Assembly: GCA_963808625.1 (NCBI GenBank)
Contig: CAWEHK010000043.1
Location: 1-64,000 of the forward strand
Direction of reading: 5' to 3'
DNA length: 64,000 bases
Source: an uncultured delta proteobacterium
GTDB taxonomy: Bacteria; Desulfobacterota; Syntrophobacteria; Syntrophobacterales; Syntrophobacteraceae
Part shown: positions 25,949 to 42,010 of the stretch, piece after piece
Position numbering within the stretch: the first letter of the stretch is position 1
How the letters are laid out: every line of letters begins with the position of its first letter
Notes under the pieces: model-generated
Database searches by the model: none
Told to the model about the DNA's origin: nothing
The model's input: only the letters and a program-made list of their open reading frames with translations
Position numbers and translations under genes: made by a program

Positions 25949-27253
25949 CTAGGGACGCCCCTCGCACTTCCTTTTCCTGCTCAGAAAAATAGCCGCGATT
26001 CCAATGAGCAGCGCGGTAAAGCTGATCATGGAGATACCGCTCAACGCGGGGACTGGCGCGGGTGGGTGCGGAGGTTCAGGATGAGGAGGCACCTCATCTT
26101 TCTTCGAGGTAACCAGTAAGGATTCCGACATTTGGTATTCCTCGCCCGCCTTCACTGTAATCGCTTCGCCTTCGGTCTGACCAACGTAGTACAGAATCAC
26201 CGCATCTCCGCCGTTAAAATTGCCGCAACAGGAATCTGCTGTTGATGCTATGCAAAGGTTCGGGGTAATTGGGCTCTCAAATACAGGAGAAACGGACTTG
26301 TAAAAACAGGAATACTTAAAGACGGCGGGAGGGGTCGGCTTGGGACGAACCCAGCTCGGGCCGGTATTGGTAGCAAATACATGGTATGTTGGCGGCTCAG
26401 GATTCATGTCGTTGTCTACAAGCCGATACATCACAAACTGCGGCGCCGCGTATTCGACCTCCGTTTCGAGAACGCCTCCGGCAGGGACCTCATCCATATA
26501 GGGTTGCAGGGTTGGTCCGTCATCGTAGCCAATCGCCAGGTCCCAGCGATATCGGATTCCTATCTTGACGTCGTTGGCCCCCGTATTCTTGACCCTGGTG
26601 GTGACTTCGACCGTAGAATCCTCGTAGGTCGTCCCGTTAACGTTGACAACCTGAGTGACCTGGAGATTAACTGGTGCTGGAATTTCATAGGTTGTGGCAA
26701 ACCCGGTTGGGAAGCCGGCCGGGCCTATGGGAGTCACCGTTCCGCCGTCCGCCTGAATTACGACATATGAACCAAGGGACCCCAACTGATAACCCTCGGT
26801 CGGTTCATGAAATTGCGGAGCGTCAGAGCCCTGAACATATTCGATGCCAAGCTTTGTCGGCTCCAGGTCACGGTTGTAAACTCGAATGGTAAGGAAGGAA
26901 CTTTCCGGATACCCCCCTCCGCCCCCCGTCAAAGCGCTCTGATCGGGGCCGGCAGGATGCTCAGAGCCGGTGCCAACGGTATACTGACCCGCGTCAAGAT
27001 TAGGCGGAGGACGATTTTTGACATAGACCTTATACAGACCGTTAGTGCCGCATCGGATCTCCGGGACCTCTGTCCCGAGGGTTTCGCAGGAAAAGGGTCC
27101 GGCTCCAAGTTTAACACCGTTCACTACAACGTTCGTTTGTGAACCCGGAGCAGTCACGGCCAAGCAAGAAGTACTGCCGGGCATAAAGCACGAGAAAAGG
27201 CTCAGGATGAAACCCAACGCCAAAACACTTGCCGCAAAGCAGGACCTTTTCAT
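25949..27253 (-). CDS. Secreted surface protein with IPTL-CTERM-like sorting signal
   Basis: N-terminal signal peptide; Pro-rich linker then VPALSGISMISFTALLIGIAAIFL-SRKRK (motif, TM helix, basic tail); RBS AAGGAGG. Confidence 0.8.
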   Translation of the reverse strand: MKRSCFAASVLALGFILSLFSCFMPGSTSCLAVTAPGSQTNVVVNGVKLGAGPFSCETLGTEVPEIRCGTNGLYKVYVKNRPPPNLDAGQYTVGTGSEHPAGPDQSALTGGGGGYPESSFLTIRVYNRDLEPTKLGIEYVQGSDAPQFHEPTEGYQLGSLGSYVVIQADGGTVTPIGPAGFPTGFATTYEIPAPVNLQVTQVVNVNGTTYEDSTVEVTTRVKNTGANDVKIGIRYRWDLAIGYDDGPTLQPYMDEVPAGGVLETEVEYAAPQFVMYRLVDNDMNPEPPTYHVFATNTGPSWVRPKPTPPAVFKYSCFYKSVSPVFESPITPNLCIASTADSCCGNFNGGDAVILYYVGQTEGEAITVKAGEEYQMSESLLVTSKKDEVPPHPEPPHPPAPVPALSGISMISFTALLIGIAAIFLSRKRKCEGRP

Positions 27254-27568
27254 GCGTGTTCCTCCTTACTCGTGGCCGGTCAGGCGGCCTGCCGGGGCGC
27301 AAACTCATGGACGCAAGGGAGTTTGCTGAGAGTCGGCTCAGTGACAATTGGTGAATAACTGACTGTTGCTACAATTCCGCGTCAGTGCTTCAATCCTAAA
27401 GCGAAAGAAACGGAAAAGCAACAAATATTGGAGCACTCACCGCAATGGACCCAAGCATTCCGGCTTACTTCCAGTACCTCTTGCCAACCCTTTCCGTTCC
27501 TTGACACAATTGCTTCGCCATGGTATGCCATTGTCAAAATTAGGACTTTTTAGAATCAGGACTCTGGC

Positions 27569-28129
27569 GTGGCTGACATAAGGGTTTTGCTCCAAAATTT
27601 GAGGCATTTTTTTTCCTCCTACCGACCGGAGATCCTATTCAGCTTCCGTTTTCTTGTGATCCTGGCGTTACTCAATGGTATTTACTACCTTTTTGCCAAA
27701 ACGCCGGTCGAGGAATTCATCCTTGGCACCTTGACCGCCAAGCCTCCGGCCTTCATCATCAACTTCCTCACTCCGGCGGAAAAGGTAGTCGTTGCCGGAA
27801 ACCAGATCACCTCGCAGCATGTTGTCTTCAGTATTGTCAGTGGCTGTGAAGGCATGGGAGGAATACTTCTGATCATCTCCGCCGTGAGCGCCACCAGCGT
27901 CAAGCTCAGGGACAAGCTCATCGGGTTGATCGAGGGGGTGGTATTTATTTATCTTTTGAATATTCTTCGCATAGTTGGTCTCTATTATGTGATGAGGCAT
28001 TACGGCAACATTTTTAACTTCGCCCACTATTTCGTGGGACAAACGATCATCATTATTTTGGGGTGTGCCTTCTTTGTACTGTGGATTTCCAAAAATATGG
28101 GCAAAGGGGATCGGGAGGCAACGAGCTAG
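27569..28129 (+). CDS. Exosortase/archaeosortase family transpeptidase
   Basis: Multi-TM protein with Cys (IVSGCEG), Arg (LNILRIVGLY) and His (FAHYF) triad motifs; TTGACA at 27501 upstream. Confidence 0.82.
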   Translation: MADIRVLLQNLRHFFSSYRPEILFSFRFLVILALLNGIYYLFAKTPVEEFILGTLTAKPPAFIINFLTPAEKVVVAGNQITSQHVVFSIVSGCEGMGGILLIISAVSATSVKLRDKLIGLIEGVVFIYLLNILRIVGLYYVMRHYGNIFNFAHYFVGQTIIIILGCAFFVLWISKNMGKGDREATS

Positions 28130-28660
28130 TTCTCATCCGGAAAGTGGCGCCTTGTTCTGTAGGAGGGGCTTCCAGCCCCGATCTCGGCTGGAAGCCCCTC
28201 CTACAAAATGGGGTTTCCGGATGGACATAAGCTAACAGCCTCTGCGGTCGTTCTGCCGAGGGTTTTGAGGTGAAGTCCCATATCCTCGTGATAAGGTTGT
28301 CCCGTGCTTTCTCATCATTCCAGGAAAAGTGGTGATCCGCGAGCATTGCTGGAGCGGAACCGGCCGCGATCCCCCTGCGCGAGCCTCGAGCGACTTGATC
28401 ATCACCGGCAGGAGAGACCTCTGAATTTTTTTCTTGAACTTGATTCCGAAGTATGCTAACCGGTACCAACACCTTAGTCATCCCAGGCAAAGAGCGAGCT
28501 TACAATGCTGAGCACTATAACATACAAGTAGTTGTATTTCTTGGTTTTCATATAAGCAGAGAGGGGGGATGTTTTTCTTACCTTGCTAACGGCGTATAGA
28601 CAGAGTGGTGTTTTTGTTTATTTTTGGACAGGCAGATCGGTCTTTTAGAAGGAGGGATTT

Positions 28661-29581
28661 ATGCGAAAGGGAATGATCTCGGTTATTTTGCTTAGTCTGA
28701 TTATTGGGGGCGCTGTACCCTCAGTGGCGAGCGCTGCTACACTTTATTACAGCACTTATGTCCTTGGTACCACCGGCTCCCAGTATGGACAAATCTGGTC
28801 GGTCGACACACCAGGAGGCGGGGGGCAGGCTTTCGTGATGGGCGTTCCTCAGGTCGACGGCTTCAACAAGCTCATGGACATGGCACCCGCCAGACTGCGG
28901 GACACCTTCTATGTCTCACTCTACAATTATACCACTCCCACCGCTTCAAGACTGCTCATCATAAACACTGCTCTCCAGACTTCGGATGTGGTGGGTGAAT
29001 TCGGTCATCCGGTGCGGCAGCTGGCCCTCGACAGGCTGAACAACGTGCTGTACGGTGCGGGAGGGGAGCCTAATGTCCCTAACCTCGGTAATGCCGACGA
29101 GAACTTTTATGTAGTTGATATGGGGACGGGAGCTGCAACCCTGATCGGTCCGTTTGATCCCGTCAATAATTCAATTCGAAAAATGGTTGGGCTGGGCTAC
29201 GACCCGAATAACGACACCATCTATGGGACAGATTCGCTTCTAAAACAGCTGTTCACGATTAACAAGGCTACGGGCCAGGCAACGCTTGTTGGCTCCACAG
29301 GGGTATGCATTTTCGACATCTATTTTGACCCGGGCACCCAGGCCATGTATGGCGTTGGGTCCCCAAATGCGCAGCTCCCTTTTTATTTCTATTCGATTAA
29401 CCTGGCAACAGGCCTCGCGACTCAAATTAGTCCACTGGCCACTGCAGACTATGCCTACGGGCTGGCGGGGTATCTTTTTAATGAATTCGTTCCTGCCAAC
29501 ACCAATGTGGGATTGTTGGTTTTCTCCCTGCTTCTCCTTGCTGTAGCTTTTGTTGTCCTGAGGCGCAAGAGGGTGGCATAA
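28661..29581 (+). CDS. Secreted beta-propeller-like protein with IPTL-CTERM-like sorting signal
   Basis: Signal peptide; repeats ending in D/N..TG.AT.IG; C-terminus VPANTNVGLLVFSLLLLAVAFVVL-RRKR; RBS AGGAGG. Confidence 0.78.
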   Translation: MRKGMISVILLSLIIGGAVPSVASAATLYYSTYVLGTTGSQYGQIWSVDTPGGGGQAFVMGVPQVDGFNKLMDMAPARLRDTFYVSLYNYTTPTASRLLIINTALQTSDVVGEFGHPVRQLALDRLNNVLYGAGGEPNVPNLGNADENFYVVDMGTGAATLIGPFDPVNNSIRKMVGLGYDPNNDTIYGTDSLLKQLFTINKATGQATLVGSTGVCIFDIYFDPGTQAMYGVGSPNAQLPFYFYSINLATGLATQISPLATADYAYGLAGYLFNEFVPANTNVGLLVFSLLLLAVAFVVLRRKRVA

Positions 29582-29764
29582 GCCTGAACCATGTGATCAT
29601 CGTTTAATGACGCTTTTTGGCTCAGGGAGAACGTCTGTTCTCCCTGAGCCATTTTAGCCGCCGTACCCCTGTGAGGTGGCTCTCTTCGCCCTTGGTGACA
29701 GTGACCCACCTTTTTCTCATGCGGTTTACCCTGGACCCATCTCGGGACCCGTTGCTCCGTAATC

Positions 29765-30256
29765 ATGCTGGCCGACGAATTAAAGCAAATTCTTGATGAA
29801 CGCATCGCCCGCGCCGAAGACCCTCGCGAACAGGCAGTGGACGTCATGTTCGAGCTTCAGGACCACTATGGCTACATGAGCGATGAGGCCATGGAGGAAG
29901 CCTCGCAACTGCTGGGGATGACGACGCTGGAACTGGAGGAACTGGCCACTTTTTACGATCATATTTACCGGGAACCCGTAGGAAAATATGTGATTCACGT
30001 ATGCGACAGCGCCATTTGCTGGATGCACGACCATCAATTGGTTATCGACCATATCCGTTCCCGGCTCGGGGTCGAGATTGGGGGAACCACGGCCGATGGC
30101 CTCTTCACGCTGCTGCCGGTCTGCTGCATCGGTTATTGCGACCGCGCTCCGGCAATGACGATCAATCGCCGCGTCTTTGGCCGTCTCACTCCCGAAAAAA
30201 TCGACCGTATCCTCACCCGGCTTAAAGATCAGGCCAGGTATGTGGAAACCGAGTGA
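29765..30256 (+). CDS. nuoE: NADH-quinone oxidoreductase subunit E
   Basis: ELATFY..IYREPVGKYVIHVCDSAIC...TTADGLFTL..VCCIGYCDRAP. Confidence 0.88.
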   Translation: MLADELKQILDERIARAEDPREQAVDVMFELQDHYGYMSDEAMEEASQLLGMTTLELEELATFYDHIYREPVGKYVIHVCDSAICWMHDHQLVIDHIRSRLGVEIGGTTADGLFTLLPVCCIGYCDRAPAMTINRRVFGRLTPEKIDRILTRLKDQARYVETE

Positions 30257-30435
30257 ATGCCGCACTTCCAGCAGCTGACCTCAGTTTACTTTTCCACCGC
30301 AGAGAACAGAGAGGGCACAGAGAGAATCATTGTCTTTCTCGGCGATCTCAGCGTGCTCTGCGGTTAATTGCCAAGTCCACCAAAATGACGGTTTTCAGCC
30401 GAAACGAGCATAACAGCTAAGAGCTAACATACACC

Positions 30436-31713
30436 ATGCCCTCGTATCCGCAGGTACTTTTTCGGAATCGTCAGCCGAACCGCACCGCTACCCTCGATGA
30501 ATATCGTCAGAGCGGCGGCTACCAGGCGCTCGAAGACTTCATCGGGAAGCGCTCGCCAGGTGAGGTGATTGCCAGGGTCGAGGAGGCCGGGCTCAGGGGG
30601 CGGGGGGGCGCCGGGTTCCCGGCCGCAAAGAAATGGTTGGCGGTCCCGGCAGATGGAGCGTTTCCGAGGTATCTCGCCGTCAACGCCGATGAGATGGAGC
30701 CCGGCACCTTCAAAGATCGCATGCTCATCCATGCCGACCCGCACCTCATCATCGAAGGAATGATCCTGGCCGCGTATGCCTTTTCGGCATCCAAAGCGTT
30801 TATCTTTGTGCGCCCATCCTATGAAAGCAGCGCCGTGATCCTCGAGCGGGAACTGGAACAGGCTCGGCAGGCGGGCTACCTGGGTTCAAATATTCTGAAC
30901 AGTCGATTCTCCTTTGATATCTCTGTTCACCGCAGCGGCGGACGCTACATCTGCGGTGAGGGCACGGCGCTGCTCAATGCCCTCATGGGAAAGCGGCCCA
31001 ACCCCTCCAAACCGCCGCCCTACCCCACGGTAAGGGGACTCTGGAACCGCCCCACGGTCGTGAACAACATCGAAACCCTGGCGAATGTTCCGCACATCCT
31101 GAGAAATGGTGCGGAATGGTTCAAGGGTCTGGCCCTATCCGAAGGGGGAGCCGGGACCAAGCTTTTCTGCGTCAGCGGCAAGGTGAACCATCCCGGATGC
31201 TTTGAACTGCCGATGGGGGTCCGTTTGCGTGGAATCATCGAGGAATCTGCCGGAGGTCTTCCGGCCGGTTCGGAATTTAAGGCCTGCCTGCCCGGCGGCG
31301 CCTCGACCCGGTATCTGACCAAAGAACACGATAATGTCGAGATGGACTTCGATACCCTCGCGGCCGTCGGACATCGCCTGGGCACTGCAGCGATCATGGT
31401 CTTCGATCACAAGACGTGCCTCGTCGGGGTCACCCTCAACCTGATGCAGTTCTTCGCGCGCGAATCGTGCGGTTGGTGTACGCCCTGCCGCGAAGGCCTG
31501 CCCTACATTCGCGACCTCCTCTGGCGCATCGAACACGGCGAGGGCCGGGAGGAATTCATTCCGATGATTCGGGACATGTGTAAAAACTCCTGGAATTCCT
31601 ACTGTGCCCTGGCTCCCGGAGCGGCTTCGCCCGTGGAGAGCCTCCTCACCTGCTTTGAAGATGAAGTGCGCGAGCATATCAGGCAGAGGAAGTGCCCGTA
31701 CGGTGCAGCCTGA
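30436..31713 (+). CDS. nuoF: NADH-quinone oxidoreductase subunit F
   Basis: GLRGRGGAGFP, NADEMEPGTFKDR, YICGEGTAL, PTVVNNIETL, ESCGWCTPCREG. Confidence 0.92.
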   Translation: MPSYPQVLFRNRQPNRTATLDEYRQSGGYQALEDFIGKRSPGEVIARVEEAGLRGRGGAGFPAAKKWLAVPADGAFPRYLAVNADEMEPGTFKDRMLIHADPHLIIEGMILAAYAFSASKAFIFVRPSYESSAVILERELEQARQAGYLGSNILNSRFSFDISVHRSGGRYICGEGTALLNALMGKRPNPSKPPPYPTVRGLWNRPTVVNNIETLANVPHILRNGAEWFKGLALSEGGAGTKLFCVSGKVNHPGCFELPMGVRLRGIIEESAGGLPAGSEFKACLPGGASTRYLTKEHDNVEMDFDTLAAVGHRLGTAAIMVFDHKTCLVGVTLNLMQFFARESCGWCTPCREGLPYIRDLLWRIEHGEGREEFIPMIRDMCKNSWNSYCALAPGAASPVESLLTCFEDEVREHIRQRKCPYGAA

Positions 31714-31853
31714 CACAGTGGTTCCGTTTTTTGGGGTATCACCTTCAGGCCGACCTTACTGATATGCCTGTTGAAACGATAATCCAGGATAGTTTAGGAT
31801 AGTTTGGTGATGATGCAACGCCGTGGTCTGAATTGCGTTTAAGGAGATTTGGT

Positions 31854-32144
31854 GTGGGCACGGCAGAGATTCTCTCGGCGAAACGCGAAGATATCCTCAG
31901 TATTGCGGCCCGACATGGGGCGCACAATGTCCGCATATTCGGTTCCATGGCCCGCGGCGAAGCCACTGAGAGCAGTGACGTGGATTTCCTCATAGACCTC
32001 GAACCGAACAAGTCTTTGTTTGAATTGAGCGCTTTGCTCGTGGAGCTGGAAGAACTGCTTGGGCGGAAGGTCGATTTGATCACGGAAGACTCCATTTATT
32101 GGCTTTTGAGACGGCGCATTCTCAAAGAGGCAGTGCCCCTGTGA
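31854..32144 (+). CDS. MntA-type minimal nucleotidyltransferase antitoxin
   Basis: FGSMARGEATESSDVDFL (GSx10DxD), LEELLGRKVDL; RBS AAGGAG; GTGA overlap with HepT. Confidence 0.88.
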   Translation: MGTAEILSAKREDILSIAARHGAHNVRIFGSMARGEATESSDVDFLIDLEPNKSLFELSALLVELEELLGRKVDLITEDSIYWLLRRRILKEAVPL

Positions 32145-32512
32145 GCAAAGATCCGCGGGTTTACCTGGCCCATATTGTTGAGTGTATCGATCGCATCCAA
32201 GACTACACGAGCGGAGGCCGAGAGGCTTTCTTCCTAAGCCGCCTGACTCAGGATGCTGTAATGCGGAATTTGGAGATCATTGGCGAAGCTGCACGACGTG
32301 TAAAGGAGGATTACCGTCAGGCCTATCCCGATATTCCCTGGCGTGAGATGGCTGCTTTGAGGAATGTGCTGATCCATGATTACGAAGGGGTGGATATCAG
32401 AAGGGTCTGGCTGGTCGTTGAAAACGACCTGCCCTCACTCAGGATTAAGCTGAGAGCGCTCTTACCACCGTTGGAACAGCTCGAAGCGGAGCTTTTCAAT
32501 GGCACAAGCTAA
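32141..32512 (+). CDS. HepT/DUF86 HEPN ribonuclease toxin
   Basis: DAVMRNLEIIGEAA, IPWREMAALRNVLIHDY (Rx4H). Confidence 0.88.
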   Translation: MSKDPRVYLAHIVECIDRIQDYTSGGREAFFLSRLTQDAVMRNLEIIGEAARRVKEDYRQAYPDIPWREMAALRNVLIHDYEGVDIRRVWLVVENDLPSLRIKLRALLPPLEQLEAELFNGTS

Positions 32513-32592
32513 ACCGTTGACATTTCTGAACCAACACCGGTAAATCGCCATAATGACCCGGAGACTACTGCGGTAGATTATTCTAATCACTT

Positions 32593-34176
32593 ATGATCAA
32601 ACGGCTCAAAATCAAAGACTACATGGCCCACAAGGAGACCGAGCTGGAGCTGGGCATCGGGGTGACGGTGCTCACCGGGCCGAACAATTCCGGAAAGAGC
32701 GCGGTCGTCGAGGCGCTGCGTTCCGTGGCGCAAAATCCCGCTCCCCATCACGTCATCAGGCATGGCGCAGCGAAGGCCGAGGTCCGGGTCGAGCTGGATT
32801 CCGGGGAGGCTGTTGAATGGGTCCGAAGCCGCGGCAACACGGTTTATCAACTCTTCAAAACCGCTCAGGATGGCGGCGGTCCTGAAGACTCGCCGGAGGT
32901 CTATGCAAAATTCGGCAGAACACCGCCCGAAGACATTCGCCGCCGTCTCCGGCTCGACCTTGTCGAAACCGAAAGCGGCACGGTCGACATCCATATCGGC
33001 AATCAGCGCTATCCCATTTTCCTCCTGGACCAGACCGGTTCGCAGGCTGCGAGTTTCTTTGCCGCCTCGACGGAAGCGGAATATCTCCTCCGGATCCAGC
33101 AGGCACTGAAGACAAGGACTGATCGCGCCAGAGGCCGGCGCAAAGATCTGCTCCAGGAATGCACGGAACTGGAGGAGGCCCTTGGTCTTTACCTCCCCGT
33201 GGACGACATCGACCTTGAACTCTCGCATACGGAAGAACTCTACGCGGGGCTGATTGCTTTGCAGCAGGCCCTGCCCCTCTTGGGTCGGACCATTGATGTG
33301 GTGCAGGAGGCAACCGTGCAGCATACCAGAAAGGCCGCATCTTTTGCCATTCTCGAAGGGCTTGCACCGCCACCCCAGACCCTGGAAACGAAAGGCCTCG
33401 AGCTGACCCTGCACGATCTTCGGGGCACCCTGCCGCAGCTCGGCCTGGTTGCGGCCGGCACCGCAGCCATGGAAGCTCTGTCTGCCCCCCCGGCACTGCC
33501 CGACACGACTCTTCTGGATGCCCTGCTCAGGGCTCTTGACAGCAACCGGATCACCCTCGACTATCGCTGCCTCGCAGGAGAAAGTCTCGCATCTCTGGAA
33601 CCACCCCCGCCGCTGCATGAAATTACCAAGCTCGAGGAGACGACCCGGGGCCTCGAGCTCGTGGGTCTCAACCGGAATCGGGCCGCCGCCGTCACCCGGG
33701 TCCTTGACGTGATCCAAACGCCGCCCGAAACTCACGCCACGACGCCCCTCCAAACCTTGCTCGAGCAGTGGACGGCCGGCGCCAGGTCGCGCGAATTCCA
33801 TGCTGCCAGGGGAGGCGTGCTGGAAAACTTGCCTGAACCGCCGCAACTTCACCCTCTCCGACCTCTGGAAGAGCTCACCGCGGCTTTGCACCAAAGGGAG
33901 CGGCGCATCGCCGAAACGCACGACCTCACGGCGGCTCTCGCGCAATTGCGTACCGCTCCGGAACCGGCGCCGATGGCTGTTGGCGATGAGCTCCTGGATC
34001 GCATGGCGCTCTTGCACCGTCGGTTCGAAGCCAGCACCCGACTCCAGGACGAACTGGCCTCTGCCCTCGCCTCGAAGCGCCGGGAAATCGCGGAGGTGAT
34101 CCAGGGTCTGGGATTGTGCCCCGTATGCGGACATCCGTTCGATACGGACCATTTCCTCGAGGAAACCCATGCCTGA
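32593..34176 (+). CDS. SbcC/Rad50-like ATPase, N-terminal half only (Walker A, Q-loop, repeat arm, terminal CxxC hook)
   Basis: MIKRLKIKDYMAH...LTGPNNSGKSA; GNQRYPIFLL; ends CPVCGHPF; no signature or Walker B. Confidence 0.8.
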   Translation: MIKRLKIKDYMAHKETELELGIGVTVLTGPNNSGKSAVVEALRSVAQNPAPHHVIRHGAAKAEVRVELDSGEAVEWVRSRGNTVYQLFKTAQDGGGPEDSPEVYAKFGRTPPEDIRRRLRLDLVETESGTVDIHIGNQRYPIFLLDQTGSQAASFFAASTEAEYLLRIQQALKTRTDRARGRRKDLLQECTELEEALGLYLPVDDIDLELSHTEELYAGLIALQQALPLLGRTIDVVQEATVQHTRKAASFAILEGLAPPPQTLETKGLELTLHDLRGTLPQLGLVAAGTAAMEALSAPPALPDTTLLDALLRALDSNRITLDYRCLAGESLASLEPPPPLHEITKLEETTRGLELVGLNRNRAAAVTRVLDVIQTPPETHATTPLQTLLEQWTAGARSREFHAARGGVLENLPEPPQLHPLRPLEELTAALHQRERRIAETHDLTAALAQLRTAPEPAPMAVGDELLDRMALLHRRFEASTRLQDELASALASKRREIAEVIQGLGLCPVCGHPFDTDHFLEETHA

Positions 34177-35152
34177 GACGCTCCTTGACCTCACCCTCGA
34201 GCCCAAAGCATATGCCGGCATCCTGTTCGTCGGCGATCCTCACATTGCCGCTTCGCCGCCGGGTTTTCGGCTGGATGATTACGCCGAGACGGTCCTGCAC
34301 AAGCTTGCCTTCAGCCTGGAGACGGCGGCACAACGGGCATACCTCCCCATCATCCTGGGCGACCTCTTCCATGTGCCCAGGGACAATCCCAATTCCCTCC
34401 TCGTGGCCCTCATTGAACTGTTTCGGCTGCATAAGCCGTGGGTGCTGGTCGGCAATCACGACAAATATGAGGCGCGGCTCACCCGCGATGTCTCCCTGGC
34501 AGTGCTCGATGCCGCCGGGGTCGTTCGACTCCTCGACCGCGACGGCCCGGTAGCTTCGGTACCCGTTGCGGGTCGCAAGGTCCTCATCGGCGCCTCGCCC
34601 GATTGGACCCCCCTTCCCGGCACGGTCAATCCCAATGGCCATGACCATGTGATCTGGTTGACACATCACGATTTAGCTTTTCCCGGCTACGAATCCGCCA
34701 GGACCAACTTGAGAGAAATCCCCGGAGTCGACCTGGTGGTCAACGGCCATATCCACACGCCCAAAGCTCCCCAGCGCTACGGCCGGACCCTCTGGTTGAA
34801 TCCCGGCAGTCTCACCCGCATCAGCCGCAGCCAGGTCACGCGAAACCTCAAGCCCGTGATTACCGCGTGGGTCCCGGCGAAGGACGAATTCGAAGTATTT
34901 GAAGTGCCTCATCAGCCCTTTGATGAAATTTTCCCCGCGCTCGACGAGGCGGATGCGGATGATCACGCGCCGGTGGATGAATCCATGTTCATCCGCGGGC
35001 TGGAGAACCTGGCGTTGCGCAAGACGAGCGAGGGGGTGGGACTGAGGGCCTTTCTCGACGTGAATCTTGCGGGCGAAAATCTCGTCGACAAAATCATCTG
35101 GGAATTATACGAGGAGATCATGCAGCATGGTAAAGAAAGAGATCAAGACTGA
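34169..35152 (+). CDS. SbcD/Mre11-like metallophosphoesterase nuclease
   Basis: GDPH, LGDLFH, VGNHD, THH, NGHIH, NPGSLTR; PGFRLDDY; overlaps upstream ATPase. Confidence 0.82.
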   Translation: MPETLLDLTLEPKAYAGILFVGDPHIAASPPGFRLDDYAETVLHKLAFSLETAAQRAYLPIILGDLFHVPRDNPNSLLVALIELFRLHKPWVLVGNHDKYEARLTRDVSLAVLDAAGVVRLLDRDGPVASVPVAGRKVLIGASPDWTPLPGTVNPNGHDHVIWLTHHDLAFPGYESARTNLREIPGVDLVVNGHIHTPKAPQRYGRTLWLNPGSLTRISRSQVTRNLKPVITAWVPAKDEFEVFEVPHQPFDEIFPALDEADADDHAPVDESMFIRGLENLALRKTSEGVGLRAFLDVNLAGENLVDKIIWELYEEIMQHGKERDQD

Positions 35153-35468
35153 AGCTCAGGCGGGCAAGGCATCACCGCGTGACCAGCAGGTTGAGAACAA
35201 GCTCCTTGCCCTCCGGGAGGAGTATCGCAAACTTCACGAAAAGAAAATCGCCACCGAGAGGGACCGCCAGAACCTGGAAGAACGGCTCCGGGAACTGCGG
35301 GAGCAGGCGGAGCGGGAATACGGCACGAGCGATCTTGAACAGCTGCGCCAGCTCCTGGAGCAGCGGCGTCGGGAGAACGAACGGATGGTCGCGGAATACG
35401 AGGAGCATGTCCGCACCATCAACGAGCGGCTGGGTGAAATCGAGGGCACCGTGAAGGAAGGACTTTAA
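35127..35468 (+). CDS. Small coiled-coil protein
   Basis: Heptad-rich E/R/L sequence, overlaps the end of the nuclease gene. Confidence 0.75.
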   Translation: MVKKEIKTEAQAGKASPRDQQVENKLLALREEYRKLHEKKIATERDRQNLEERLRELREQAEREYGTSDLEQLRQLLEQRRRENERMVAEYEEHVRTINERLGEIEGTVKEGL

Positions 35469-35679
35469 TCCCGAGAGCATCCACGAATACACACGAGTGG
35501 ACACGAATAGACTGACAACATGCTCCAAACCAAGGAGCGGTCGAAAAACAAGGCGCCTTCTTTTACCAAGAAGAGCAGCAGGATGACGGAGGAAAGGAAG
35601 TGATTTCTTCGTGCTCTTCGTGTCCTTTGTGGTTTGAAACAGAGTCAAAATGAGAGCAAGTTATTTTTGGACGAACCCA

Positions 35680-35820
35680 AATACTACAACGAGGTTTCCG
35701 CAGGGGGCCTTAATCTGTGGGGCAGGCTTTCCAGCCTGCCTTTTGGGCAGTTCAGCATGGCAGGCTGGAAAGCCTGCCCCACGCAGTTTGAGGCTTGCTC
35801 AAATTACCGTTGCAGTGCTA
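35680..35820. mobile_element. MITE-like ~140-bp element (second copy 49307-49449) containing a GGCAGGCTGGAAAGCCTGCC REP doublet
   Basis: Imperfect terminal inverted repeats AATACTACAACG...CGTTGCAGTGCTA; near-identical interior in the second copy. Confidence 0.7.
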
Positions 35821-35834
35821 AGGACCGTTAATTA

Positions 35835-36500
35835 ATGAAAGACGTCGAACTCGAATCCCAGGGGGTTCCTGAGCCGGGCCCGCTGCGCAAGCGCCTGGAC
35901 ACTCTCCGGTGGCGGCAGAAAACCCTTCACCAGAAGCTGCTGAAGAACCACGAGACGCTCCAGGACCTGGATGCCTTCCTGGAAATTCAGCCCCGCGTCG
36001 CAGAGCGTTTGGATGAGCTTTCCCGCCAGCTTTTTGGGAACATCCTGGAAGAAATCGAGCGGAACTTGACGTATGCTCTGAGGGAAATCCTGGGGCAGGA
36101 CCTGCGGGTGGTTTCCCAGAAAGAGATGAAGAACCGGAAAATGCACGTCACCTTCGGGATTGAACGCGAGGGAAAGCCCGAGGACATCCTTACCGGCCAG
36201 GGAGGCTCCGTCTGCAACGTCATTTCGGTGGGGTTGCGCTTGATCGCTCTCTCGCAGCTTGATGAACGGGAACATCGCCGGTTCCTCGTGCTGGACGAAC
36301 AGGACTGCTGGCTCAGGCCGGACCTGGTGCCCCGTCTCATGGCGATTATTCATACCATCGCTCGGAAGCTGCAATTCCAGGTACTCGTGATCAGCCATCA
36401 CAGCATGGATCTCTTCCGAGAACATGCCGACCGCATCTACCGGATTGTACCGGCTGTGAGGCCCGATGCCGGAGTGCGGATCGAACTGCTGAAAGAATGA
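35835..36500 (+). CDS. SbcC/Rad50-like ATPase, C-terminal half (short coiled coil, ABC signature, Walker B, H-loop)
   Basis: DILTGQGGSV (signature variant), FLVLDEQDCWL (Walker B), QVLVISHH (H-loop); no Walker A. Confidence 0.8.
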   Translation: MKDVELESQGVPEPGPLRKRLDTLRWRQKTLHQKLLKNHETLQDLDAFLEIQPRVAERLDELSRQLFGNILEEIERNLTYALREILGQDLRVVSQKEMKNRKMHVTFGIEREGKPEDILTGQGGSVCNVISVGLRLIALSQLDEREHRRFLVLDEQDCWLRPDLVPRLMAIIHTIARKLQFQVLVISHHSMDLFREHADRIYRIVPAVRPDAGVRIELLKE

Positions 36501-36740
36501 CCTCACCGCAGAGACGCAGAGAGCGCAGAGAAAGGCATAACCTAAAGCAAAATCCTGACAGAAACCCAAGGAATTGTAGGTTGGCAATGCAAAGGAAAAA
36601 GGCTGACTTGCTTCAATGCAGAGGACTCCTAACGCGCATCAATAAGAAATTGGCTTCGATTTTTCTGTATCTTATGGTTTTCTCTGCGCTCTCTGCGTCT
36701 CTGCGGTGAACTTTTGCTTTCAAAAAATCACAGGTAGGCC

Positions 36741-39221
36741 ATGCCAAGACTGGTAATTGATGATCTTTCGATCGAGGTCCCTGCCGGGACCAAGGTCATC
36801 GAGGCTGCCGAACAACTGGGCATAATGATTCCGCGGTTCTGTTACCACAAGGCTCTGGGATCGGTTGGCGCCTGCCGCATGTGTGCGGTGAAGTTCCTGC
36901 AGGGCCCGTTCAAGGGGGTCCAGATGAGCTGCCTCGTAGACGCCCAGGACGGCATGGTGGTTTCCACCACCGATGACGAGGCGGTGGCGTTTCGCAAGTA
37001 CATCATCGAACTGCTCATGCTGAATCACCCTCACGACTGCCCGGTCTGCGACGAAGGGGGACAGTGCCTGCTTCAGGACATGACGGTTTCAGGCGGGCAC
37101 GGCATGCGGCGTTATCTCGGCAGGAAGAGGACTTATCGGGACCAGGACCTCGGGGCGTTCATCGCTCATGAGATGAATCGCTGTATTCACTGCTATCGGT
37201 GCTCCCGGTTTTACCAGGAATTTAGCGGGTATCGCGATCTCGGGCCGATGCAGATTGCCAGCCGGGTGTATTTTGGCCGTTTTCAAGACGGGCAACTGGA
37301 GAGCCCCTTTTCCGGGAATCTCGTTGATCTGTGCCCGACCGGCGTTTATACGGACAAGCCGGCGCGCTTCAAAGGGCGGCGATGGGACTTCGAGCGGGCC
37401 CCGTCGCTGTGCCTGCATTGTTCGCTCGGCTGCAATACCACGGCCAATGCGCGCTACCGGACGATGGTGCGAGTTGAAGCGCGATCCAATGAGTTGGTCA
37501 ATGGCTTCTTCATCTGCGACCGGGGCCGGTTTGGCTTCTCCTATGCCAATCATCCGGAGCGACCGCGTCACGCCAGGGTTGACGGGAATGAGTCCTCGCT
37601 CGAGGAGGCTCTTCAAGCCGCCCGCAGCCGGCTCGCAACCATTCAGGACCAGGCGGGCCGCCATGCTGTCGCCGGCCTCGGCTCTCCGCGCAGCAGTCTG
37701 GAAACGCAGGGGATGCTCAAACGCTTATGTCGGTTGATGCAGTGGCGCGAGCCCGACTACTTTCTCGACCCTCGACTCAAGAAGAAAGTCCAGAGCGCCA
37801 TTTCCCAACTGGATAGCCGGATGGCAGTCTCGCTGCGCCAGGTCGAGACGGCGGATTGTATCCTGGCGGTCGGCATCGACCCCCTTAACGAAGCTCCGAT
37901 GCTGGCGCTTGCCATGAGGCAGGCTTATCGCAGGGAAGCAACCGTAGCCGTGATCGATCCCCGGCCGCTTTCCCTGCCTTTCCCCTTCGCCCACCTGGCG
38001 GTTCCAACCTGGAACCTGGACCGCTGTTTGCGCGTGCTCTTTCAGGGGGGCAGGGAGGAGCTTCATTTGAGTCAAAGGGACCAGGACGACGCATCACTTT
38101 CCCCCGAAATCCACCGGCAGATTACGGAAGTTGCCGCAGCGTTCAGGGCGAGCGGCAATCCGGTCCTGATCTGCGGCACGGATGTGGTCCCTGAAAGCAC
38201 CCCGGCCCTCATCGGCGCCCATGCGCGGTTGTTGCTCCAGGAGAAAGGGACCTGCGGCCTCTTTTATGCGCTTCCCGGTGCCAACGCCTTCGGTGCCGGG
38301 CTCCTCAGTTCTGCCGGCGATCAGACGTTCCTCGAAACCGTTGAGGCCATTGAACGGGGTGAGGTCAAAGCACTGATCGTTGTTGAATCGGACCCTTTCG
38401 GGCAATTTCCCGACCGGTCCCGGCTCGAGCGGGCCCTTGCGAAGCTGGAGTGTCTGCTGGTGTTGGATTATCTGCCGTCACCGCTCACTGCCCGAGCCCA
38501 CATTGTGCTGCCAATTTTGACCATGTTCGAAACCGGCTCCAGCTTTATCAACCAGGAAGGCAGGGTTCAATTTGCGCAACCGATTTATCACGGAGGGACG
38601 CCGGTGTCTCAGGCGATGGCGGGTGGACATCCGCCGCGGCTTTATGCAGAGGACCTTTCCGGCGGGGAACTGAAGCCTGCCTGGGAGCTCCTGGCCGACC
38701 TGGCGGACGCAATGTCGACGGGGCAGAAAATCGGGCCGCAGGATAACCCGCTTTCCCGGGCTGCCCTCGAGCATCCTCTGCTTGCCGGACTGCGACATTT
38801 GGACTACCCCATTGACAACGTCCGGTGTATACCTGTTTCGGTTGAGGCGGAACCGTTCCCCTCAGTCGTTGACTCCTTCATCGGTCCCGATACTCAAAAG
38901 GAACTGCAGCTCCTTCTGGTGGAGTCGAACCCGGGCTCTGAAGAGTTGTCTCAGTATGCGGACCTCATCCAACAGGTGGAACGTGAACCCGTCCTTGCCA
39001 TGCACACCGACGATGCGGCAAAGCTCGGGTTTTCGGAGGGTGACCGGGTCTTGCTTACCTTCGAGGGAGGAACGATCCAAACAAGACTCAGGGTCGCAAA
39101 AAACATGGCACCGGGGACCCTGATTTTGCCTCGCCACCGGAAACTCGCATGGCAGCAGGTCGGGGACTTTTCCGTAATGCTGCCTTTGGATAGGCTAAGA
39201 AGAGAGCAATGGGGTGGTGCC
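36741..39221 (+). CDS. nuoG: NADH-quinone oxidoreductase subunit G (stop not seen; reads through into the next gene)
   Basis: IPRFCYH..L..VGACRMC, NHPHDCPVCDEGGQCLLQD, RCIHCYRC, CPTG, CLHCSLGC, ICDRGRFG. Confidence 0.88.
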
Positions 39222-39776
39222 ATGAGAAGACTCGTTATTCTTGTTCTGCTGTTTCCTGCGATTGCTCTCAGCGGAGAATGTGAAAATCAAGGCGGAAAAT
39301 GTGTTCCGTTTGCTCCCGACCAGGTGTGTCCTTCCGGGGGAAAGGGAGTCCCGGGGCTTGGATGCGCAGTGGCTGAAATATGCTGCAAAGCAGACGAGAA
39401 GTGCTGCATCGTGGTTCCCTTTCAAGAATGTTTCAATGCGGATACTCCTGCCAGGGTAGCCAACTGCAAAGGCCGAATCATTAACTGTTCGTGTCCTCCT
39501 AATTGCACCGCCCGATGCGTGGAAAGCGAGAAATGCTGCACCCACGGCAGCAGGCTGGCGGAAATTCCCTATGGGATAACGGAAGAGGACTGCATCAAGA
39601 ATGGTTGGACCGTTAATCCGATTTCCTGCGAGAAAGTCGAACAGCAGCTCACCAGAAAATGCTGTCTCACAGACAGTACTTGTATGAGCATACCACACAG
39701 AATTGCAGAAGAAGAATGTTTGTCCGAGGGCTGGGCGGTGATCTATTGTCGATTTGGCGATAGCTGCAAAAGGTAA
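39222..39776 (+). CDS. Cysteine-rich secreted protein (24 Cys in 184 aa)
   Basis: MRRLVILVLLFPAIALSG signal peptide after GGTGG; in frame with nuoG in this assembly. Confidence 0.65.
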   Translation: MRRLVILVLLFPAIALSGECENQGGKCVPFAPDQVCPSGGKGVPGLGCAVAEICCKADEKCCIVVPFQECFNADTPARVANCKGRIINCSCPPNCTARCVESEKCCTHGSRLAEIPYGITEEDCIKNGWTVNPISCEKVEQQLTRKCCLTDSTCMSIPHRIAEEECLSEGWAVIYCRFGDSCKR

Positions 39777-39830
39777 CCGAGTCATGAGCGGGTTAGACCT
39801 GGCGGTCAACCGGCAGTGCTAAGGGTAGTG

Positions 39831-40540
39831 ATGAAAGCGATAAGTATACAGCAGCCATTTGCGTTCGGGATTGTCAGCGGTCAGAAAACAATCGAGGTCA
39901 GGACCTGGGACACCCATCACCGGGGGGACCTTCTCGTCTGTTCATCGGGAAAACCCGCCTTCTCCAGGATGGAAATGGAAGAGATGGAGGAGGAGTACGA
40001 CTGTACTTTCCTCTATGGACATGCGCTTGCTGTCGTTAGCCTTGTGGACGTCCGGCAGGTGAGAAGAGGAGACGAGGAGAAGGCGCTCATGGACGAAATC
40101 GATCCCGAAGCCTGCTGTTGGGTCCTTGCGGACGTTCGTCCCGTTATTCCGTTCCCCGTCAAAGGGAGGCAGGGCCTCTTCGAGGTCGATGACAGCCTCA
40201 TCACCGAAGCGCCTTTCAAATTCGATCAAACGATTGTCGTAAGAGGAGGGACCGTCGCAGAAGATTTAGGGATCGATTTCTCCGGTTGGCATGGCCGGGT
40301 TTCCGAGGTCCTTCTCACCGAAGAGGGCGAGCCCCGGGCCCATGTAACCTGGGACAGTGTGTCTCTGCGCAGCATGCCGCTTACGGTGATCGAGAAATGC
40401 GTGAGGGAAGGCTTTGACTGGACCGGGGTGCTGGTGCGCCTCCATGAGATCGAACATGCCGAGCCGAGGGATACGTGGGATGATGTCCGGAATGCAATCG
40501 AAGACCTCGAGGCGGAGCATTTCTCCATCTTCCAGGTGAA
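39831..40540 (+). CDS. ASCH-domain protein with acidic C-terminal domain (3' end uncertain)
   Basis: MKAISIQQPFA..IV.G.KTIEVRTW.T.HRGDLLVCSS...PVKGRQGLF. Confidence 0.75.
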
Positions 40541-40606
40541 GAGACAGTTAGGTCCGAGTTACACGAACATCGAAGAGAAGCGTTGGAAGAACTCAGGCTG
40601 GAAACT

Positions 40607-40622
40607 GGGGGCCGAAGCCCCC
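40607..40622 (-). terminator. Putative terminator hairpin after hup
   Basis: Minus strand GGGGC-TTCG-GCCCC followed by CAGTTT, 17 nt after the stop. Confidence 0.5.
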
Positions 40623-40639
40623 TGTTGGCTGGCAATGCG

Positions 40640-40933
40640 TTACTTCTTTTTGCCTTTCTTGACATTCAGGCTTTCTTTGAATGCCTTTCCAGCAGTAAAC
40701 TTTACCGCCTTCTTGGCAGGGATCTTCAACTTCTTGCCAGTCGCAGGATTACGGCCTTCCCGGGCGGCTCGTTCCACCATTTTGAAACTTCCAAACCCGA
40801 TAAAGGTTACTGTCTCACCGGCACGGACAGCCTCCATGATCGAAGCCAGAGTGCTGTCGATTGCTGCATTTGCTGCCTTTTTGGTGACCTCAAGATCCTT
40901 GGAAACCTTTGTTATAAGCTCGGCTTTTGTCAT
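40640..40933 (-). CDS. hup: HU DNA-binding protein
   Basis: MTKAELI...GFGSF....RAAREGRNPATG..LKIPAKKAVKFTAGKAFKESLN. Confidence 0.95.
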   Translation of the reverse strand: MTKAELITKVSKDLEVTKKAANAAIDSTLASIMEAVRAGETVTFIGFGSFKMVERAAREGRNPATGKKLKIPAKKAVKFTAGKAFKESLNVKKGKKK

Positions 40934-41461
40934 GTCCCTCTCCTCCATTTAAGGTTAAAGTTTTACGCCGACAACCACATGGTGCATCTCATGAAGAACA
41001 TCTTTAAACCATACTGGTGATTAAAACTGATTAAGCTTCCCGTAAGCTATTGATGCTTTAGAGCCTGCGTCTTTAGATGGCCGCAGAGGTTTCACCACCC
41101 AAGATATTGGAACATAACCGAGTCCATAACTTGCAGCAGAACCGGTCGTTATGAAAAATTCACAGGTATATGAAGCGCCTGAACCTTGCAAGAGTTAGTC
41201 TATTCACGGATTATTGAAAACAACAATCTTTTCGATAAGTCAAGGAGAAAGAACACAATAGGGGGCTTCTAGGGCAATAAAAGTCTCGGATACCTGCTAC
41301 GGGGAGGCCTGAAGCCGGGAAGAACTGCCCCGGAACAGGGAATCAACAGAGTAACGGCTTCCCCAGAAAGTCGTTCGGCCAAACGCTGACAGCGTATCGT
41401 ACGGGCTCGAACGGTATTGGCTATCGCTCGAAAGCAGCCCATCCGAGCGATGCAGTTGGAG

Positions 41462-42010
41462 CTAAGGTGATTTGCGGAAGCTGAAAAAATCCTGGCCGGC
41501 CGTGACCGGATTTGCGGGACTGCTTGCCGGGCCGACGGAGAGGTCCGGGACATCGGCAGCCAAAGGATTGGCTGTCGCTGGACCTGAGGGGACGAAGGGA
41601 TTGACCGTTGCTTGGCTCACACCGAAAGGATCGACAACCGGTCCCGGCATAAAAGGCGGGTTCGACAGACCGCCCGGTGAGGTCGCCACAGCAAAGGGAT
41701 CGATGACCTGGGCATTGGCATCAAAAGGCCGGTCAAGGGATGGCGCAGCGGGTGCGCTCATCAAAGATGAACTGGTGCCCGGAATGGCTCCGTTGGCGCT
41801 TGAGAGAGAACCGAATTGGCTCGTCTTCCGGCCCCCCGGAGAAGTGGCGACACGCTGTTGGTTGGCGCGATTCATCCGGTTGTAGGCGTTCAGGACCTTT
41901 GCTAAATCGCGATTGTACTGAGGCCCACCGGCGTTGGGTCTTGCCCGCTGGGCAAGGGCCGGGTTGAAAAACATAAGGATGGCGGCAGTCAAGATTATCG
42001 TCTTCTTCAT
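41462..42010 (-). CDS. Secreted Pro/Ala-rich hypothetical protein
   Basis: Signal peptide MKKTIILTAAIL...ALA; repeated (V/I)DPF/NPF motifs. Confidence 0.65.
   Translation of the reverse strand: MKKTIILTAAILMFFNPALAQRARPNAGGPQYNRDLAKVLNAYNRMNRANQQRVATSPGGRKTSQFGSLSSANGAIPGTSSSLMSAPAAPSLDRPFDANAQVIDPFAVATSPGGLSNPPFMPGPVVDPFGVSQATVNPFVPSGPATANPLAADVPDLSVGPASSPANPVTAGQDFFSFRKSP

Follow-up and report, generated by a model that had tools for sequence, protein, structure and literature searches.

An apparently undescribed operon of the Mre11-Rad50/SbcCD type, with ATPase head motifs on two genes and a modular arm

How would a Rad50-like ATPase work when the two lobes of its head are encoded by separate genes, with a nuclease gene between them? 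The question is raised by a four-gene operon of an uncultured delta proteobacterium (Syntrophobacteraceae; assembly GCA_963808625.1), found within positions 1 to 64,000 of contig CAWEHK010000043.1, the 64,000-nucleotide stretch analysed here (the window). All four genes are on the forward strand: gene 1 (P0001, 527 residues; 32593..34176) encodes a Rad50-like N-lobe, an outgoing helix, 39-residue modules and a CPVC motif; gene 2 (P0002, 327 residues; 34169..35152) an Mre11/SbcD-like metallophosphoesterase; gene 3 (P0003, 113 residues; 35127..35468) a small protein without a known family; and gene 4 (P0004, 221 residues; 35835..36500) a returning helix followed by a Rad50-like C-lobe. The operon is apparently a conserved, undescribed variant of Mre11-Rad50/SbcCD. 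A full-text literature search that did not extend to the ABC ATPase classification of Krishnan et al. (2020), the likeliest home of any earlier description, returned no account of the operon, of its permuted form or of its modular arm, and passages of PMC7824862, PMC5105663, PMC12663957, PMC12153180 and PMC2147016 contain none. Judged from its sequence, the operon is on balance probably the cell's Mre11-Rad50-type housekeeping DNA-end nuclease-ATPase, with a non-textbook arm and a predicted activity that would replace that of an SbcCD-type complex.

A Rad50-like head encoded in two parts

The motifs of an ATP-binding cassette (ABC) ATPase are shared out between genes 1 and 4. The gene 1 product carries Walker A (GPNNSGKS, residues 29-36; 32677-32700) and the Q-loop (Q138), and the gene 4 product the signature (GQGGS, residues 121-125; 36195-36209), Walker B (LDEQD, residues 153-157; 36291-36305) and the H-loop (SHH, residues 187-189; 36393-36401). 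An initial annotation had described exactly such a split, and it stands: the motifs lie where they were placed, and the order recurs in 69 of 80 related loci. These 80 are the best of 331 genome loci found and, judged by title, come from Syntrophobacteraceae, Desulfobaccaceae, Desulfovibrionaceae, Pirellulaceae, Phycisphaerae, Acidobacteriota and a Clostridiales genome, among others. The full set of four genes, in one order and on one strand, is present at 69 of them; a contig end truncates 8, and gene 4 stands alone at 3. Walker A is present in 60 of 69 gene 1 homologues (8 of the remainder are open at a contig end and 1 is in two frames), LDEQD in 80/80 and GQGGS in 79/80 C-half homologues; homologues of the C-half that are similar in length number 2181.

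Gene 1 matches Pfam AAA_23, with a Rad50 zinc hook match under the cut-off and an AAA_27 match limited to residues 2-83 (25.2 bits; cut-off 22). An NCBIfam scan gave partial matches only, far under cut-off, and no Pfam family exceeded its cut-off for gene 4. In a structure model of the gene 1 product (predicted local distance difference test, pLDDT, 75; predicted template modelling score, pTM, 0.34) the head has Pyrococcus furiosus Rad50 as its best match. The operon thus has an N-lobe with Walker A and Q-loop, C-lobe motifs on a separate gene and a CXXC, all features of Rad50/SbcC. Like SbcCD/Mre11-Rad50 (P. furiosus Rad50, Thermotoga maritima Mre11, Escherichia coli SbcCD, phage T4 gp46/gp47), it has Rad50-like folded head lobes, a CxxC at the far end of the arm and an adjacent nuclease nearest to Mre11/SbcD; unlike them, it spreads its head over two genes, the nuclease gene lying between them, and it has a chain that stops at the hook without a full returning strand, an arm of proline-broken 39-residue modules and an extra small subunit. 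The textbook Rad50 motifs are the LSGG signature and the D-loop, from which GQGGS and DEQDCW of the operon differ. No single chain doubling back into an intramolecular antiparallel coiled coil was found, and no open reading frame (ORF) fuses the N- and C-halves in the 80 loci. The operon likely works like SbcCD while falling outside the single-chain, folded-back definition of the family.

How the halves could join is suggested by relatives that carry both on one chain. A C-half profile search of cluster representatives gave 1643 hits, and 87 of the best 150 are single chains in permuted order: C-half first, then N-half and arm. All but three of these (84 of 87) end in CxxC. Among the same 150 there is no full-length chain in textbook order, the only textbook-order hit being a 118-residue fragment. 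Permuted chains occur on 21 plasmids of 0.25-1.3 Mb; at the two megaplasmid loci examined a small gene comes first, then the permuted ATPase and the nuclease; both small genes fit the gene 3 profile (97.5% and 78.8%), and one nuclease is 36% identical to the gene 2 product. One permuted chain was modelled (pLDDT 86, pTM 0.65) and matched both Rad50 lobes, including C-lobe chains. Across 80 permuted chains, 12 of the top 20 covarying pairs fall on one antiparallel band, compared with 5-8 in 8 shuffles, and this band joins the leading helix and the outgoing helix. Between the halves of 60 split pairs there was no signal (6/20 vs 4-6 shuffled), a point against a head made of two proteins; the composite ATPase head is thus supported by way of the permuted single-chain relatives, from which we infer it. 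Two separate proteins would assemble each head, and the N-terminal helix of the gene 4 product very probably packs in antiparallel fashion against the gene 1 product's first outgoing helix, joining the lobes. Five C-half proteins (P0135, P0137, P0141, P0145, P0146) have a C-terminal extension of 270-330 residues that none of the four profiles matched.

Half-Rad50 proteins may already be hinted at in print. For Mre11/Rad50 fusions from Bacillus phage 0305phi8-36 and Anaerostipes, PMC3175470 reports the lack of one of the two P-loop NTPase segments, and the phage fusion gene matches P0001; the passages on them describe no partner half, small subunit or modular arm.

The initial annotation also placed an SbcD-like nuclease and a small coiled-coil gene between the two halves, and both are there. 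Gene 2 matches Pfam Metallophos over the cut-off, has the five metal-binding motifs of the phosphoesterases (GDPH, GDLF, GNHD, THH, NGHIH; GNHD in 72 of 75 homologues) and has Mre11/SbcD entries as its nearest solved structures; its product is short (327 residues), with a conserved C-terminal segment. Gene 3 encodes a 113-residue helical protein. Two such units would likely form a dimer through heads and hooks that bears the nuclease, and the complex, like SbcCD, would trim hairpins and blocked ends in an ATP-controlled manner.

The modular arm and the small protein

Beyond the head, the gene 1 chain takes an unusual course. In the model, a long helix is followed by helices of about 28 residues with proline-rich linkers, a 45-residue helix and CPVC (residues 509-512, 34117-34128), near the C-terminus. 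Six 39-residue modules, each an amphipathic helix of about 28 residues plus a proline-rich linker, span 33346..34035 (residues 252-481; forward strand). A CxxC stands 19-64 residues before the C-terminus in 68/69 homologues and would act as a putative zinc hook. Of 60 homologues taken for arm length, 55 were measurable, and in all 55 the distance from Q-loop to hook is 259, 298, 337, 376, 415 or 454 residues (within 4 residues), a periodicity of 0.99 at 39 residues that 0/1000 jittered controls attained. Module number varies between species, with at least 13 changes along the tree, and lengths outside the arm stay constant (small-protein core 77 residues in 60/60, C-half core 108 residues in 52/60). 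The modules retain a hydrophobic pattern with little sequence conserved, and their ratio of nonsynonymous to synonymous substitution rates (dN/dS, against two relatives) is 0.23-0.28. The permuted single chains show a looser arm step of about 33 residues (periodicity 0.48; 0/1000 controls). Because the arm grows in 39-residue steps while the other pieces keep their length, the modules appear to have no returning strand: a textbook folded-back coil would need one that changed in step, and none does, so the module helices need another partner. A one-stranded arm of modules would then lead to the C-terminal CxxC.

A known precedent for such an arm comes from E. coli exonuclease VII, where, according to PMC10835039, the XseA arm is proline-interrupted and of quantised length, and each step binds one more XseB. 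The likeness to this enzyme (XseA4-XseB24) extends to a hydrophobic pattern with little identity and a small helical partner (same source), and it is an analogy: exonuclease VII has no ATPase, XseB has no homology to the small protein, and the own genome has two xseB matches (C19:84296-84451 and C36:114391-114543).

Several properties of gene 3 bear on whether its product could be that partner. It has no Pfam match, a Protein Data Bank sequence search returned generic coiled coils only, and its sequence suggests a helix-turn-helix around YGTSD. Its Shine-Dalgarno site (GAGGAG, 35111..35116, forward strand) lies within the end of gene 2 and is on average the strongest of the operon (mean energy -10.3 kcal/mol; the other three -4.2, -7.8 and -6.3), exceeding that of gene 1 in 51/59 loci, of gene 4 in 47/56 and of gene 2 in 21/32. 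The motif is missing in 9 of 75 loci; where it is present, its Glu codon is GAG in 66/66, compared with a 56% background, so synonymous choices favour the site. The small protein is separate in both gene orders, also where the halves are fused. Weak and uncontrolled covariation hints at antiparallel helices within it, and in a complex prediction of three proteins with the small protein as partner the score was 0.29, set beside a mark of 0.32, with controls that were not folded. Small phage genes beside split ATPases gave no match to the small-protein profile (2.2% and 0.5%).

A quantised arm, a small helical protein that is separate in both orders and the strongest ribosome-binding site together fit a coat model, in which the small protein perhaps, at slightly less than even chances by our estimate, grips the module helices in multiple copies by analogy with XseB on XseA. 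More broadly, and more tentatively, we suggest a possible second architecture for the arms of structural maintenance of chromosomes (SMC) proteins: a hook-ended single strand that a small subunit, present in many copies, complements in trans, the number of subunits setting arm length as it does in exonuclease VII. Such a complex would act in repair, would have displaced SbcCD/SbcEF in many anaerobes and would occur circularly permuted on megaplasmids. The four-component SMC-nuclease complex of the initial annotation survives this far, conservation and permuted relatives supporting its composite head; its 'three-part Rad50' is not demonstrated, for the small protein, instead of forming a third part of that chain, may be a subunit of its own in several copies.

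Some results sit poorly with a coat of small subunits. The strong Shine-Dalgarno site of gene 3 gives no copy number and could be there for translational coupling, and the high conservation of the small protein would also suit one conserved site. Covariation of the small protein with any partner is at shuffle level; after tree correction, the tendency of arm and small protein towards opposite charge, in one of six regions tried, falls to a weak r -0.32, with 30 opposite and 21 same. The small protein as an XseB homologue was ruled out (hhalign probability 0.2%, no Pfam match). The same repair role could instead be played with a single copy of the small protein as the third piece of a returning coil, either next to the hook helix or spanning from hook to head, while the modules pair in parallel between protomers or loop out. 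We hold this to be doubtful but worth taking seriously, as gene 3 lies directly 5' of the C-half coding region in both orders, where the returning strand is expected, the first predicted helix of the small protein (about 45 residues, from its sequence) equals the unpaired hook helix (462-506) in length, and its dN/dS of 0.05-0.08, compared with 0.23-0.28 for the modules, is in keeping with a conserved surface for a partner. A third piece of the coil is, however, harder to square with a protein that stays separate even where the halves fuse, has the strongest Shine-Dalgarno site of the four and does not covary with the hook helix; no longer protein containing it was found among 7988 scored candidates, which is weak evidence.

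Repair, defence or mobility

What the operon does is best approached through what it replaces. With an sbcD-like gene defined as a TIGR00619 match at E 1e-5, the operon largely tends to exclude SbcCD/SbcEF-type nucleases, though not in Pirellulales. The check for canonical sbcCD proposed with the initial annotation came out as a replacement would have it: the own genome (84.6% complete) gave neither a TIGR00619 hit nor, in tblastn, any match to the SbcC, SbcD, YhaN or YhaO of its relatives. In the order around genome G236 (101 genomes), sbcD-like genes occur in 2/11 operon carriers vs 84/90 non-carriers (Fisher, 1e-7; 2/10 carriers with the centre genome left out), in the own family (75 genomes) in 3/17 vs 38/58 (Fisher, 7e-4; within-genus permutation p 0.009), and in a 41-genome set that overlaps the family set in 3/21 vs 14/20. 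Two of the three family exceptions (G004, G014) retain, in the fetched stretches, no more than operon remnants, and have an intact YhaO/YhaN pair elsewhere; the sbcD-like hit of the third (G008) is a short phosphoesterase at a contig end. Fourteen sbcD-like loci were inspected, most with YhaO/YhaN-type pairs and one with canonical SbcCD.

The system displaced thus resembles SbcEF (YhaN/YhaO) of Bacillus subtilis, whose AAA_27-type pair is present in most examined non-carriers. Like the operon, SbcEF combines an SMC-like ATPase with an SbcD-like nuclease; unlike it, YhaN-type proteins are single chains of about 925-1210 residues, and the own genome shows neither a long single-chain AAA_27 ATPase behind a 420-residue nuclease at this locus nor a tblastn match to its kin's YhaN/YhaO. 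SbcE of B. subtilis has a role in double-strand-break repair (PMC2811018), so the displacement of SbcEF-type genes points to repair. Some results temper this reading. Unlike the SbcCD nucleases, the gene 2 product matches neither the curated sbcD model TIGR00619 nor the SbcD_C domain; three genomes (G241, G258, G238) hold both systems intact or nearly so; Pirellulales show no exclusion (2/5 carriers vs 29/56 non-carriers); the kin behind the exclusion counts are not independent; the own genome is incomplete; and 20 of the 75 family genomes show neither system, so that either neither is indispensable or the searches miss some.

The initial annotation had left repair and defence side by side, and of the two repair is favoured by the replacement of SbcCD/SbcEF, by a tree (a quick one, with 55 of 60 rows) in which the operon groups largely by host genus and by mostly housekeeping neighbours. 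A defence against phages or plasmids in the manner of Lamassu or Wadjet, sensing and cutting foreign DNA ends, is unlikely. It would suit the patchy presence of the operon (21/41 relatives; 7/201 in a phylum sample), the existence of operon remnants, the toxin-antitoxin pair that adjoins it here and the few defence candidates or integrases among neighbours elsewhere; Lamassu, moreover, has a CxxC and is reported to derive from SbcCD (PMC12663957). Both known systems likewise join an SMC-like ATPase to a nuclease. Wadjet JetABCD comprises a hinge-type SMC, a kleisin, a KITE protein and a toprim nuclease. The operon differs from Lamassu (LmuABC) and Wadjet in its split ATPase and in lacking defence-island context: genes 2-4 match no LmuA, LmuC or Jet subunit (gene 1 was judged on the best 25 of 72 families), no full-length LmuB with an LmuA effector and LmuC is present, and the LmuB match is confined to residues 2-168 of the gene 1 product. 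In the PADLOC and neighbourhood survey proposed to look for a defence link, PADLOC covers only generic ATPase stretches of the operon itself, with nothing for genes 2 and 3. Beyond the close loci, neighbours differ and are mostly metabolic or signalling genes (Pfam, 103 neighbours scanned), and at 1e-10 PADLOC matches 15/124 nearest neighbours, mostly partial methyltransferase, helicase or HD domains, about three of the 15 being plausible defence-type genes; neighbour genes were called by a heuristic, and the PADLOC scan had no control set. A single copy in the own genome, a stable site in five relatives, genus-level clades and the exclusion of repair genes also argue against defence. Still less probable is a phage or megaplasmid recombination module, present as a passive passenger or serving resident mobile elements only. 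Permuted relatives on 21 large plasmids, distant split relatives in Bacillus and Microbacterium phages and look-alike stand-alone C-halves in phage-dominated clusters speak for it, and the phage relatives make a mobile origin plausible. Such an origin is compatible with the housekeeping repair reading, and present-day passenger status is unsupported: scans of viral contigs with split and permuted alignments confirmed no close relative, region G+C (0.55-0.63) is inside the range of the window, neighbours are mostly housekeeping genes and all four genes are under purifying selection (whole-gene dN/dS against two relatives 0.05-0.19; nuoF 0.08). There is next to no chance that the operon is a broken or mis-assembled ordinary sbcC gene, which the conservation data rule out. 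A proline-rich middle of low conservation and the degraded copies in G004, G014 and G033 might have suggested it, but the breakpoints are identical in 69 loci under several phyla-level labels, catalytic motifs are nearly invariant and dN/dS is below 0.3. The initial annotation had argued against a frameshift artefact from different frames and overlapping or independent starts; the shared split in 69 of 80 loci upholds that conclusion, and genes 1 and 2 overlap by 8 nt and genes 2 and 3 by 26 nt, but gene 4 has the same reading frame as gene 3, and the 366 nt between them contain repeat elements.

A few observations accompany these comparisons. The decayed copies (L127, L126 and L128 in G004, G014 and G033) have internal deletions, and two of the three genomes carry YhaO/YhaN. 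A DUF3795 or methyltransferase-like gene often lies 5' of the operon in Desulfovibrionaceae (L059:3680-4120, L065:5014-5463, L068:3958-4452, L070:4411-5313; also at L064, L074, L076, L079, L081, L093 and L099). Bacillus phage vB_BboS-125 has an unannotated ORF (L107:10109-11224), downstream of its split ATPase genes, that matches the nuclease profile.

The nuoF-nuoG site and the meaning of the operon

As initially annotated, the operon separates nuoF, which ends at 31713, from nuoG, which starts at 36741, and the site is common to five relatives: nuoG is directly downstream in five close loci, with nuoF also upstream in four of them. The stretch between nuoF and gene 1 differs among relatives. 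Here it holds an MntA-like nucleotidyltransferase and HepT-like pair (31860..32512, forward strand), which domain matches confirm; the pair lies outside the conserved four-gene unit and is a variable neighbour elsewhere. A promoter of the operon's own had been proposed upstream of gene 1 and is unsupported: the letters are present (TTGACA at 32517, TAAATC at 32541), but TAAATC matches TATAAT at 3/6 positions, a promoter scanner listed no site there and the pair is not kept in the five relatives compared. A search for sequencing runs listed no RNA run and small DNA shares only.

Repetitive extragenic palindromic (REP)-like repeats at 35717-35782, 35605-35634 and 36490-36722 occupy the gaps 3' of genes 3 and 4; the genome holds 130, 50 and 63 near matches to the repeat arms. 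The junction of genes 3 and 4 measures 0.85-2.1 kb in six loci (L059, L061, L063, L068, L069, L099), so it tolerates insertions. The nuoG ORF (36741-39776) has 1011 residues vs 833-886 in relatives, extending in frame beyond the usual end with a cysteine-rich segment that starts like a signal peptide, possibly through a lost stop or a fusion. No flanking nuo genes accompany nuoE and nuoF (together 29765-31713) and nuoG (36741 onward) within 26000-42000, and contigs C8 and C39 carry more distant paralogues of nuoF and nuoG. Further upstream, in the segment 25949-29581, is what we take from its translation to be an exosortase-like membrane gene (27569-28129), flanked by presumably secreted proteins that end in a VP-motif, a hydrophobic stretch and a basic tail.

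Rad50 and other SMC proteins are defined by one self-folded chain, and it is an open question how signals travel along the arm from hook to head and back. The operon family retains head, hook and nuclease and drops the returning strand, and its natural ladder of arm lengths, together with the permuted chain, makes arm length and continuity testable. The family would likewise account for why sbcCD is not seen in many genomes of Syntrophobacterales and Desulfovibrionales, and would give names to four unannotated gene families.

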